Part shown: positions 7,381 to 64,000 of the stretch, one piece after another
How the letters are laid out: each line of letters opens with the position of its first letter
Position numbering within the stretch: position 1 is the first letter of the stretch
Origin: an uncultured Chitinophaga sp.
GTDB lineage: Bacteria > Bacteroidota > Bacteroidia > Chitinophagales > Chitinophagaceae
Length of the DNA: 64,000 nt
NCBI GenBank assembly: GCA_964652845.1
Contig: CAZZDQ010000005.1
Location: forward strand, 22,959 to 86,958
Reading direction: 5' to 3'
Notes under the pieces: generated by a model
What the model was told of the DNA's origin: nothing
The model's database searches: none
The model's input: only the letters and a program-made list of their open reading frames with translations
Made by a program: the position numbers and the translations under genes

Positions 7381-8508
7381 ATGCCTGTCAAAAAAACAGA
7401 TATTGAAAATTTTTTATTATTGGCGAAGACCTGCCCAGTGATCGATGTGCGCAGTCCCGCTGAATACAAACATGCGCATATTCCAGGGGCGATGAATATT
7501 CCTCTCTTTGACGACGAGGAAAGAAAGATCGTAGGTACCCTTTACAAACAACGCAGCCGGGAAGAAGCTATTAAAAAAGGATTGGAATTCTTCGGACCGA
7601 AAATGAGGAAGATCGTGGAGGAGGCTGAAGTAATTTGCAATAGGCAATATGCAATCAGCATGGAGCGAAAAGACCAAGAGGGAAAAAATTTGCCAATTGC
7701 CAATTGCCTGTTGATCTACTGCTGGAGAGGAGGCATGCGGAGCGCCGCGATTGCCTGGTTGCTGGGTCTCTATGGATTTACCGTATTGACCCTGACCGGC
7801 GGGTACAAATCGTTTCGCCGGTTCGCGCTGCAAATTTTCAGCCAGCCCGTCCATTTGCAAATCCTGGGAGGATACACCGGCTCTGGTAAAACCGAATTGC
7901 TGAAAGCATTGCAGCAAAGAGGGGAACATATCATTGACCTGGAAGATTTGGCTAAACACAAAGGTTCTGCATTCGGAAATATCGGGATGCCTGCCCAGCC
8001 TGGCCAGGAAATGTTTGAGAATTTACTGGCAGTTGAATTACACAAAATAATCACGAATTTCCGATCCCGCATCGCGGATCCCGAATCCCGAATATGGCTC
8101 GAAGACGAAAGCCAGCGTATCGGGCTGGTGAATATTCCCAATGATTGGTGGGCAACCATGCGTCGTTCTCCTGTCTGTTTCCTTGATATCCCTTTTGAAG
8201 AAAGACTGAAAAATATCGTGCATGAATACGGGTCGCTGGATAGAAAAGGCCTGGTGGATGCGATCGGAAGAATAAAAGATAAATTGGGGGGACAGCACGC
8301 CAAAGAAGCAACCAACCTGCTGGAAGAGGGAAATACGATAGAAAGTTTCCGCATCCTGCTGAAATATTACGATAAATTATACGCAAAGTCCCTGTACAAT
8401 CGGGCTAATGCAAATTCGTTATTACATATTGTGCACTGTAAAGGTGTCACTGTTGAAAATGCCATTATCCTTTCTGAATTTTCCTTGCAACAGCCTTTGC
8501 CGGTATAG
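7381..8508 (+). CDS. mnmH: tRNA 2-selenouridine synthase
   Basis: Rhodanese domain (IDVRSPAEY...HIPGA, YCWRGGMRS) plus P-loop GYTGSGKT and HKGSAFG, typical of SelU/MnmH. Confidence 0.93.
   Translation: MPVKKTDIENFLLLAKTCPVIDVRSPAEYKHAHIPGAMNIPLFDDEERKIVGTLYKQRSREEAIKKGLEFFGPKMRKIVEEAEVICNRQYAISMERKDQEGKNLPIANCLLIYCWRGGMRSAAIAWLLGLYGFTVLTLTGGYKSFRRFALQIFSQPVHLQILGGYTGSGKTELLKALQQRGEHIIDLEDLAKHKGSAFGNIGMPAQPGQEMFENLLAVELHKIITNFRSRIADPESRIWLEDESQRIGLVNIPNDWWATMRRSPVCFLDIPFEERLKNIVHEYGSLDRKGLVDAIGRIKDKLGGQHAKEATNLLEEGNTIESFRILLKYYDKLYAKSLYNRANANSLLHIVHCKGVTVENAIILSEFSLQQPLPV
7637..7710. repeat. Inverted heptamer arrays inside the selU coding sequence
   Basis: gcaatag-gcaatat-gcaatca ... ttgccaa-ttgccaa-ttgcctg. 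Confidence 0.7.
8051..8092 (+). repeat. Six degenerate tandem heptamers inside selU
   Basis: tcacgaa tttccga tcccgca tcgcgga tcccgaa tcccgaa (42 nt, in frame). Confidence 0.75.
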
Positions 8509-18448: not shown

Positions 18449-19513
18449 ATGATGGTAATGGAAGAACAGTCGGTCAGACTCACTCAATTCTCGCATGGCG
18501 CCGGATGCGGCTGCAAGATCGCACCTGCTGTGCTGGATGAGATCCTGAAAAGCAGTATTGCTATTCCCGATAAGAAACTGCTCGTGGGAAACAGCAGCAG
18601 GGATGATGCAGCTGTGTACGAACTGGAAAATGACATGGCGCTTATCTCCACCACCGATTTTTTTATGCCTGTCGTGGATGATGCTTATGATTTCGGCCGT
18701 ATCGCTGCCGCCAATGCGATCAGCGATGTATATGCCATGGGCGGGAAACCAATAATGGCTGTGGCCATACTCGGATGGCCTATTGAAAAAATCCCTGTTC
18801 AGCTCGCCAAACAGGTGATCGAAGGCGGGAGAAAAATTTGTACCGAAGCGGGTATTCCGCTGGCAGGCGGGCATAGCATCGATTCTCCGGAACCGATCTT
18901 CGGGCTTTCGGTAAATGGCATTGTCACGACCGGGAATTTAAAGCGAAATAATACTGCCCGGGAAGGCAACCAACTATTCCTGACCAAACCCATCGGGGTC
19001 GGAATTCTATCTACTGCACAAAAAAGAGGGTTGCTGAAAGAAGAGCATTTACCACTCATGATCGAGCAAATGACGACCCTGAATAAGATCGGGGAAAAGC
19101 TTGGGAAAATAAAGGGAGTGACTGCAATGACGGATATCACCGGTTTCGGATTGCTGGGACATTTGATCGAAATGGCTGAAGGAAGCGGCCTGAGCGCTGA
19201 AATTTATTATGATAAAATACCTGTTGCCGCTGGCGTAAAGGATTACATTGCGCAAAAGATTTTTCCGGATGCAACTACAAGGAATTGGAATGGCTACGGG
19301 CAAAGGGTAAAATTTGAAAAAAATGTACCTGTGATGGAAGCATTTACGTTATTGCCGGATCCTCAAACCAACGGTGGATTACTGATCAGTGTAGATAAAC
19401 ATTCAGTTAATGAAATAAGGGAATTGTTTGTAAATAGTGGTCTTGAAAATATTTCTGAACCGATCGGCACAATGCGCAATAAAGAAGATAAAACGGTTTT
19501 TGTTTTACCTTGA
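18449..19513 (+). CDS. selD: Selenide, water dikinase (Cys form)
   Basis: HGAGCGCKI, TTDFF, GGHSI, TDITGFGLLGH and DPQTNGGLL motifs. Confidence 0.96.
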   Translation: MMVMEEQSVRLTQFSHGAGCGCKIAPAVLDEILKSSIAIPDKKLLVGNSSRDDAAVYELENDMALISTTDFFMPVVDDAYDFGRIAAANAISDVYAMGGKPIMAVAILGWPIEKIPVQLAKQVIEGGRKICTEAGIPLAGGHSIDSPEPIFGLSVNGIVTTGNLKRNNTAREGNQLFLTKPIGVGILSTAQKRGLLKEEHLPLMIEQMTTLNKIGEKLGKIKGVTAMTDITGFGLLGHLIEMAEGSGLSAEIYYDKIPVAAGVKDYIAQKIFPDATTRNWNGYGQRVKFEKNVPVMEAFTLLPDPQTNGGLLISVDKHSVNEIRELFVNSGLENISEPIGTMRNKEDKTVFVLP

Positions 19514-56527: not shown

Positions 56528-56819
56528 ATGAATAAACATGAATTACAGAGACCAATTAAATCGTTCTGCTTCTTCTGCGGCGGCCAATTATAGTGCCTCG
56601 CTAAGAGCCAAATCAACTGCAGACTTTATAAATAAATTTAAAATAGTTGAGGAAGAATTAGATGAATCACTTTTATTCTTTGATTTGACAAAAGCAGCAA
56701 ATCCGGCATGCGGGCGTGAAATAGATGAATTGGCAAAACAAGGAAACGAACTGCTTTCAATAATCGTCAGTTCATTGAAAACGCTCAGAGTCAAACAAGC
56801 ACTAAATCGTAAATCTTAA
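56528..56819 (+). pseudogene. Four-helix-bundle (23S rRNA IVS-like) protein with internal deletion and frameshift
   Basis: MNKHELQR at 56528 is out of frame with QLNRSASSAAANY...RAKSTADFINKFKIVEEELDES...NELLSI. The intervening helix expected in this family is missing. Confidence 0.7.
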
Positions 56820-56838
56820 ATTGTAATTCGTAAATCAA
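56804..56838. repeat. Heptamer array, right flank (inverted relative to the left flank)
   Basis: aaatcgt aaatctt aaattgt aattcgt aaatcaa. Confidence 0.8.
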
Positions 56839-63058: not shown

Positions 63059-64000
63059 TCAAAGTATACGCATGGAAGAACTGAAGTCATCACTAATCAA
63101 AACCAATCCCGGTTTTTTGCCTTTTTCAAAGCTTCCGAGTTCATCATCCCATCGCAGTGCACGGGCGCCATTGAAGGTGGCCCATTGCAGGATGGCCTGA
63201 AGCGGTATTCCAGGGAGCTGCTGATGAACGGTTTCCATCTCTTTGGTAATGCTCAGTTGCCAGTTGCTGCTATAGCTGTCCGTACCCAGTACGATCCGGC
63301 AACCATGCTTCATCAGCAGTTTAACAGGCGGCATTTTATTTTCAATATAGCTGTTGGCATTCACGCATAAGCAATAGACCAGGATCAACCCCTCATTTTT
63401 TGCATATTCATTGGCCCATACAATATCTTCTTCGGGCATATAGGTGTTGTGAATAAGAAAAATAGTTTGCCCCTTATTGAAATAAGGCAATACAGAACGT
63501 ATACTGCTCTTGCCGGTAACGGGAAAGGGCGAATGATCGATCCCGAAGATCTTAAAAAGCCGCAATAAATCTCCGCCGCCGGTTTTATATAATTCATCTT
63601 CTGCAGGGTGCTCCTGGTTGTGAAGGGAAATGACCTGGTCTTTTGTGAGTTCATTTATTCTCCTGAAAGTTTGAGGACTGATACTGTAAGGAGAATGGGG
63701 AACCAAACTTGTACGTTGAATATTATTTATTGAGTGTTGTTTATTAAAACCTGAAGCTACTGTCAGGTAATGCTCTATGTTTTCCGCTGCCTTCTCATCC
63801 GTGAACCCAAGCACTTCCACAAAATTCTGCCAGCGGATCCTGCTTTTGCTTTTTACTGCTGCGGTATCAGCTGTATTACCAATATCACCCACGGCAACGA
63901 TACCGTTATCATACATTTCTTTTTCTGCAGCGATGATCTCCTGTTGTATCAGTTCCCCGGGGAAATTTCTTTTGGTAACGACCGAACAAAGAAATTCGAT
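63059..64000 (-). CDS. Metal-dependent amidohydrolase (5'-truncated by the window edge)
   Basis: Frame open to the window end; VPHSPYS, SLHNQE, LIH, LGTDS, NGARAL and GKKPGLV motifs. Confidence 0.88.
   Translation of the reverse strand: MEFLCSVVTKRNFPGELIQQEIIAAEKEMYDNGIVAVGDIGNTADTAAVKSKSRIRWQNFVEVLGFTDEKAAENIEHYLTVASGFNKQHSINNIQRTSLVPHSPYSISPQTFRRINELTKDQVISLHNQEHPAEDELYKTGGGDLLRLFKIFGIDHSPFPVTGKSSIRSVLPYFNKGQTIFLIHNTYMPEEDIVWANEYAKNEGLILVYCLCVNANSYIENKMPPVKLLMKHGCRIVLGTDSYSSNWQLSITKEMETVHQQLPGIPLQAILQWATFNGARALRWDDELGSFEKGKKPGLVLISDDFSSSMRIL
63711..63745 (-). repeat. Five degenerate heptamers inside the amidohydrolase gene
   Basis: Minus strand: aataaac aacactc aataaat aatattc aacgtac. 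Confidence 0.55.

Follow-up and report, generated by a model that had tools for sequence, protein, structure and literature searches.

Heptanucleotide-repeat segments in the selU gene of an uncultured Chitinophaga sp. and their possible relation to dispersed inverted arrays and gene-carrying cassettes

The selU gene in a 64,000-nt stretch of DNA from an uncultured Chitinophaga sp. (the whole stretch is called the window below) carries two in-frame segments built on a period of seven nucleotides. This locus raises the question of how such segments came to lie within a conserved enzyme, and whether they belong to a repeat family that moves in the genome or arose where they are. The gene product matches the NCBIfam profiles NF008750 (355.6 bits, cut-off 241) and TIGR03167 (320.6 bits, cut-off 219.75). 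Its rhodanese loop CWRGGMRS (C114-S121) and its P-loop GGYTGSGKT (G163-T171) are intact, and both are invariant or almost so across the alignments of SelU orthologues. Cys114 is the residue which we take to be catalytic, by analogy with SelU of E. coli. The selD gene is found about 10 kb downstream (Table 1), and its presence suggests that the selenouridine pathway is in use. The protein with both inserts is probably still a working enzyme. The closest named homologues belong to metagenome-assembled genomes of Chitinophagaceae, and near-identical contigs are present in rock and soil metagenomes.

Table 1. Coordinates of the features in the window that are discussed in the text.
Feature	Position	Strand	Basis
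selU/mnmH, tRNA 2-selenouridine synthase	7381-8508	+	375 aa, ORF intact
Site 1 left arm, GCAATNN x2.7 (TRF unit GCAATAG), reads CNRQYAI	7637-7655	+	TRF
Site 1 spacer/hairpin loop, non-repeated, reads SMERKDQEGKN	7656-7689	+	sequence, fold
Site 1 right arm, TTGCCAA x2.7, reads LPIANC	7690-7708	+	TRF, 100% matches
Site 2 direct heptamer array, reads NFRSRIADPESRI, directly before WLEDES	8057-8098	+	lag-7 scan
selD, selenophosphate synthetase, SelU partner	18476-19402	+	TIGR00476 424 bits (cut-off 125)
Left heptamer arm, ACGATTT type, overlaps last suhB codons	56467-56531	+	TRF
5'-truncated PF05635 four-helix-bundle ORF, cassette cargo	56538-56819	+	PF05635 match 56538-56768
Right heptamer arm, TAAATCG x4.9, inverse of left arm, ends 3 nt before thiL ATG	56803-56836	+	TRF

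The first segment, site 1, is 72 nt long overall and is translated as VICNRQYAIS...NLPIANCLLIYCWRGG. An earlier sequence-only reading had described an inverted pair here; TRF recovers both of its arms as arrays, and the translation given at that time is exact. The right arm is complementary to the left one, and the peptide which it encodes runs into the strand leading to Cys114. An inverted-repeat search returned arms of 18 nt that are 83% complementary and 35 nt apart, and the RNA fold of the site has an energy of -23.3 kcal/mol, with z -2.4 against dinucleotide shuffles and z -3.0 against plain shuffles. The left junction, CAATAG, is common to several genera, so that SelU, if considered alone, could be explained by a single ancient event with later slippage. 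A GCAAT...ATTGC pair in a short-loop orthologue (L024) was likened to the site 1 arms and was set aside as possibly due to chance.

The second segment, site 2, is a direct array with the translation ITNFRSRIADPESRIWLEDES. Its TRF core consists of ATCCCGA x4.3 at 8064-8093, that is, 4.3 good units, accompanied by two degenerate ones. The array and its translation had both been reported correctly, whereas the earlier count of six units starting at 8051 was generous, because in the first two units no more than 3-5 of 7 positions agree with the consensus. No significant hairpin was found at site 2 (RNA fold z +0.5).

To see these segments against their relatives, SelU orthologue DNA was gathered for 26 further genera of the family, for 11 congeneric species and for 3 metagenomic relatives, and the lengths of both sites were counted between fixed anchors in 41 orthologues. 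Site 1 has 29 aa here and 9-16 aa in most other genera, with a base state of 9-13 aa, and site 2 has 19 aa, compared with 9-11 aa in the shortest cases. The solved rhodanese domain 3g5j shows an 18-residue gap at site 1. SelU would have gained about 17-20 residues ahead of the strand to Cys114 and about 9-10 ahead of the WLEDES strand. The AlphaFold2 model of the protein is confident as a whole (mean pLDDT 88, pTM 0.87), and its only internal dips in pLDDT fall at residues 91-110 (67-70) and 221-240 (66-72, with values below 50 at 230-232). In the model, site 1 extends the helix 60-100 and adds a loop before the strand 109-113 and Cys114, and site 2 forms the loop joining the helix 209-225 to the strand 238-241. 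Both segments are insertions at loops of variable length, and it is in them that the model, confident elsewhere, loses its confidence. These outcomes, like those of the other checks proposed in the sequence-only reading, favoured that reading.

Within the genus these loops are hypervariable, site 1 ranging over 17-47 aa and site 2 over 10-57 aa. Loop length tracks the period-7 score among the orthologues: the fraction of lag-7 matches is 0.5-0.6 in long loops compared with about 0.25 in short ones. The heptamer inserts account for most of the length variation of SelU within this one genus. At site 1 the sequence of the arms varies among lineages, and the complementarity of the paired arms is kept. 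The pair is GCAAT/ATTGC in the window and in L057, L109 and L116, CAGTC/GACTG in L058 and L059, and AGTC/GACT in L111-L113, L115 and L118. Close relatives also differ in length, site 1 having 32 aa in L111 and 47 aa in L059. In the congener L116 only site 1 is filled and site 2 is empty, and the relative L058 has a site-2 hairpin of -87 kcal/mol (z -8.9). In a quick tree of SelU the period-7-rich inserts fall in one clade of 21 sequences. The tree is poorly resolved elsewhere, and for that reason the independent insertions at site 1 were left uncounted.

The SelU segments are not isolated cases in this genome. In the 2.88-Mb assembly, 44 regions had at least 21 of 28 lag-7 matches, and the same threshold returned 0-7 regions at lags 4-13 and 15 and 13 regions at lag 14. 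A genome simulated with a third-order Markov model contained no lag-7 region, so period-7 arrays lie far above the shuffled expectation, an outcome in favour of the sequence-only reading, which had proposed a scan of this kind. With a TRF score of at least 40, there were 43 arrays of period 7, whereas periods 6 and 8 gave 2 and 5 arrays. A looser lag-7 threshold gave 79 arrays, of which 34 lie inside long ORFs, 17 over gene ends and 28 in intergenic DNA. Since ORFs cover 92% of the DNA, the share of arrays in ORFs (43%, p = 2e-28) means that arrays are strongly depleted from genes. Units with a stop codon on both strands were present in 2 of the 34 intragenic, 11 of the 28 intergenic and 6 of the 17 gene-end arrays, and make up 9% of random genomic heptamers. 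At the level of the window itself, TRF at score 30 listed no array at 63711-63745, and an Rfam scan of the whole 64 kb matched no family.

The units themselves recur between loci. Forty-six pairs of units were identical after rotation and change of strand, where 4.2 were expected (maximum 8), and 232 pairs compared with 73 were within one mismatch. These pair counts were used because single-linkage clustering at one mismatch led to near-total chaining both in the data and in the null. Of the 79 arrays, 16 were accompanied within 200 nt by an inverted array with at least 16 of 21 matches, compared with 0-2 in reversed or complemented controls. The unit families seen are CAAGGNN, GGAATTN, AAATCGT, TTGAATA, CCCGAAT, CAACCAG and GCAATNN, and none of them equals TAACTGA or GGGAATC. 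The commonest is CAAGGNN, for which three units in a row had 21 hits in the genome and none in the control. It is present in 13 of 121 genomes of the family and 13 of 201 genomes of the phylum, at times in high copy number. The genomes in which it is plentiful (G136, G055, G014 and G193) belong to a few scattered genera of this family, apart from one that comes from a different family of the phylum.

Among the host genes, 20 of 27 belong to a known Pfam family, and most of them encode conserved enzymes. Four arrays are in PyrD, three in an E2 acyltransferase and two in CysRS; other hosts are MutL, RsmG, HisRS, an RluB-like pseudouridine synthase, an RsmB-like protein, RsmF, Fmt, TsaD, UbiD and LptE. 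In the three enzymes checked, arrays lie in internal loops whose length varies among orthologues. PyrD and CysRS were each compared with 23 orthologues from the family. Residues 133-165 of PyrD contain an insertion of about 21 aa made of inverted ACGATTT/AAATCGT arrays, and the linker of CysRS is longer by 7 aa and has inverted CGGGAT/ATCCCG arrays. A different picture was obtained at residues 42-60 of PyrD (G000:C6:68819-68872; L036/L060), where GGAATTT x5 is present with the length unchanged relative to orthologues, and where the closest relative (L061) has TTCAATA-type units in the codons for the same residues. Judged from these sequences, this array looks like the result of rewriting in place, which fits it better than insertion. 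The claim that the repeats create new peptide in conserved proteins was upheld by similar peptides in other enzymes. The DADPESRIPN sequence of CysRS belongs to the unit family of SelU site 2 (ADPESRI here, ENPESRIPN in L057), so that PESRIPN is found in CysRS and in one SelU orthologue, and ELPIAYC of RsmF resembles LPIANC of SelU (LPIA.C).

The sequence-only reading had also pointed to the same period-7 style on both sides of a four-helix-bundle gene at 56.5-56.8 kb of the window, and TRF does find an arm on each side of this PF05635 ORF (Table 1). The genome contains three PF05635 matches. The one intact gene (G000:C14:31212-31660; L122 1382-1875) has the longest array of the genome, GGAATTA x8.9, about 40 nt upstream and a short remnant of the inverse array directly past its stop codon. 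The third match (C18:23828-24055) is partial, and the TRF repeats near it are of period 8 only, without heptamer arms. Of 31 genomes of the genus, 25 contain PF05635, and the copy number in one genome can reach 16. The flanks were tested with 28 copies for which both flanks were available and with 51 shifted controls. A lag-7 array was found in a flank of 17 of the 28 copies compared with 2 of the 51 controls, and a flank-to-flank inverted match of at least 13 of 14 was found for 18 copies and for none of the controls. The arms vary from copy to copy and match inside each copy. One copy (L144) has CAGTC/GACTG arms, a family also seen in the SelU orthologues, and the arms of the window cassette belong to the unit family of the PyrD coding hairpin (ACGATTT/AAATCGT).

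The junction of suhB and thiL, where the window cassette lies, was compared across congeners (loci L154-L169). In 11 of them the two genes overlap by ATGA, which is the empty state of the locus, and the cassettes found there in other genomes are therefore inserted DNA. Cassettes with ACGATTT/AAATCGT arms are 352 nt long with a truncated gene in the genome studied here (G000) and 416 nt long with an intact gene in G090. At the same junction G089 has a 559-nt cassette with other, doubled arms, ATGTACG/CGTACAT, and G068 has a gene-less remnant of this latter type, 128 nt long. No target-site duplication was evident at the suhB-thiL cassettes. The suggestion of a selfish repeat family made in the sequence-only reading is thus supported indirectly: armed cassettes were demonstrably inserted at this junction, but some arrays, such as that at PyrD 42-60, appear to have been grown or rewritten in place.

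We give a probability of roughly 0.6 to the reading that the SelU segments are translated copies of dispersed heptanucleotide-repeat elements active in the genus, with an element, slippage and selection each having a part. The basic element would be a stem of two inverted arrays, made of 7-nt units with about five fixed and two variable positions, and inside this stem would lie a short loop or, alternatively, a small PF05635 gene for an Avd-like four-helix bundle. Single direct arrays, for example site 2, would be one-armed or decayed forms. Such elements may land randomly, with selection retaining those copies that preserve the frame, are free of stop codons and lie in tolerant surface loops. 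Replication slippage could afterwards expand, contract and homogenise the arrays, and the complementarity of the arms might be kept either because one arm serves as the template for the other or because the stem is under selection. A further step is proposed tentatively, with the odds somewhat against it: the coding hairpins in SelU, PyrD, CysRS and other hosts may be cargo-less copies of an undescribed insertion cassette, whose full form carries the Avd-like gene, a module shared with the 23S rRNA intervening sequences, and which would spread by a hairpin mechanism without a classical transposase, rewriting its own arms in 7-nt units. The SelU inserts have no ORF and are therefore at most cargo-less relatives of the PF05635 cassettes.

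Attempts to find a mover for the arrays were not successful. Two Y1 transposase genes (PF01797, IS200/IS605-type) are present in the genome (G000:C63:11889-12230 and C43:14449-14793; L120 and L121), so that a Y1/RAYT transposase was considered as a candidate and was dismissed, as neither heptamer arrays nor matching hairpins adjoin these genes. A lead towards diversity-generating retroelements (DGR) was likewise abandoned, since no reverse transcriptase (PF00078) match was obtained in the genome, whose completeness by markers is 100%. Neither a transposase nor a target-site duplication nor an excision product could be tied to the arrays, and no parent IS was identified for them.

Heptamer repeats of bacteria have been known since 1990. 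In the published cases they show an excess, are mostly intergenic, may occur as inverted pairs and have a patchy spread, and coding copies are rare or peripheral (PMC4692102, PMC4679880). Heptanucleotide LSSR/STRR include the cyanobacterial STRR, GGGAATC of Xanthomonas and GGGGA(C/T)T of Nostoc (PMC4692102), and TAACTGA repeats occur in Beggiatoaceae, cyanobacteria and five Bacteroidetes (PMC4679880); the term LSSR is used here in the sense of Mrazek 2007, as cited in both papers (PMC4692102, PMC4679880). The arrays described here share with them the tandem 7-nt units in which few positions vary, the presence of several unit families in a genome, the excess over other periods, occasional inverted pairs, a patchy phylogenetic spread and changes of length among relatives, and they also tend to lie between genes or at gene ends. 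In contrast to them, 34 of 79 arrays are inside ORFs and the unit sequences are different, and the tie to PF05635 cassettes is absent from those two papers (PMC4692102, PMC4679880). The comparison with Rickettsia palindromic elements (RPEs) made in the sequence-only reading is apt as a concept but not as membership. RPEs are palindromes of about 150 bp with a conserved family consensus (reviewed in PMC10969869), and they share with the segments studied here the position in frame within unrelated metabolic genes and the translation into an extra, fold-compatible peptide. In-frame palindromic insertions of this type are seen at SelU site 1, at PyrD 133-165 and in the CysRS insert. Unlike RPEs, which have about 100-150 bp and a conserved consensus and peptide, the elements here are 40-160 nt long and also exist in a form with cargo, and their heptamer-periodic arms vary by copy, locus and species, so that only short motifs recur. 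Coding insertions in Nostoc may reportedly be described by Elhai 2008 and Meeks 2001.

The PF05635 family has relatives in Avd and in the proteins of 23S rRNA intervening sequences (IVS) (PMC10053308), and a long inverted-repeat stem around a small PF05635 four-helix-bundle gene is common to the IVS/Avd systems and to the cassettes. However, 23S IVS lie in helix 25 or 45, whereas the cassettes examined here adjoin or separate protein genes, for example suhB and thiL. The cassettes also differ from IVS and DGR in having stems of heptamer arrays, in a genome with no reverse transcriptase, and the SelU inserts have no gene at all. REP/REPIN-RAYT systems (PMC3116915) are similar in that short hairpin repeats, often in inverted pairs, are dispersed in one genome. 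REPINs nevertheless lie outside genes, on the flanks of RAYT genes, and each family has a single conserved sequence (PMC3116915), whereas here many copies are coding and the two Y1 genes are without adjoining arrays. As in MITEs, inverted arms are present, but neither the duplication of a target site at suhB-thiL nor a parent IS came to light.

The alternative that has to be weighed most carefully is slippage by itself. LSSR heptamers would then grow in place from chance seeds, 7-nt units being favoured by polymerase slippage, with no mobile element involved; recurrent units would result from sequence-dependent slippage or composition, and inverted pairs from template switching. Both a heptamer excess and a slippage hypothesis are on record for bacteria (PMC4692102, PMC4679880), and several of our own observations point the same way: the relatives L112 and L113 are exactly 21 nt apart at site 1, which is a step of three units, site 2 has direct repeats only and no hairpin, and the PyrD 42-60 array brings no change of length while a relative carries another unit. 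On the other side, the same units are shared by many loci far over chance (46 compared with 4.2 pairs), the cargo cassettes are whole insertions at an ATGA-overlap junction, with arms that differ between cassettes and match within each, and CAAGGNN has its patchy spread over 13/121 family and 13/201 phylum genomes. Slippage alone accounts for changes in unit number, and perhaps for PyrD 42-60, but not easily for recurrent units, matched cargo arms and the insertion of whole cassettes. It is a serious rival for the intragenic arrays, and we regard it as unlikely to be the whole explanation.

A function specific to the gene is a less probable explanation, and we give it little credence. The site-1 hairpin would be a selected structure of the selU mRNA with a role in pausing, stability or regulation, or else the LPxANC peptide would be selected in the enzyme. 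The co-variation of the arms in orthologues is consistent with this, as are the hairpins of the period-7-rich site-1 inserts, 8 of 11 of which reach a z of -3 or lower, and the retention of LP[ITV]ANC in many SelU orthologues at 60-76% identity. The same architecture is, however, found in unrelated genes, in intergenic DNA and around the cassettes; site-1 lengths range over 15-47 aa inside one clade, some members of which are without the insert; and site 2 has no structure. Finally, the period could be a matter of chance in ordinary variable loops, or the arrays could be phase-variable contingency repeats. The low TRF scores of the individual SelU arrays (31-39) and the long loops without periodicity in some orthologues, for example L023 and L010, are in favour of this view. 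Against it are the genome-wide lag-7 excess, the relation of loop length to the period-7 score, the housekeeping genes as hosts, the shortness of the arrays and the lack of frame-shifting variants among the metagenome contigs compared. Either possibility is very improbable.

In this genome, heptamer repeats measurably add new peptide to essential enzymes. In a search with thin coverage of subscription journals, no published description was found of heptamer arrays inside Bacteroidota housekeeping enzymes or of heptamer-armed PF05635 cassettes. At the suhB-thiL junction the empty, filled and remnant states can be compared cleanly as they occur in nature, and with it an old question becomes testable, namely whether heptamer repeats are slippage products or mobile DNA, together with the role of the four-helix-bundle protein. 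In genome annotation, inserts of this kind account for odd low-complexity loops and breaks of alignment in conserved genes of Bacteroidota metagenome-assembled genomes.

The contigs of four rock and soil metagenome runs showed neither presence/absence nor indels of the coding hairpins, a comparison which, being made on contigs only, is weak evidence. Some metagenome contigs end at site 2. Short contigs from soil metagenomes match positions 8054-8093 alone and then continue into unrelated sequence with more heptamer units, and the sample therefore contains the array family of site 2 elsewhere as well, either at further loci or in further organisms.
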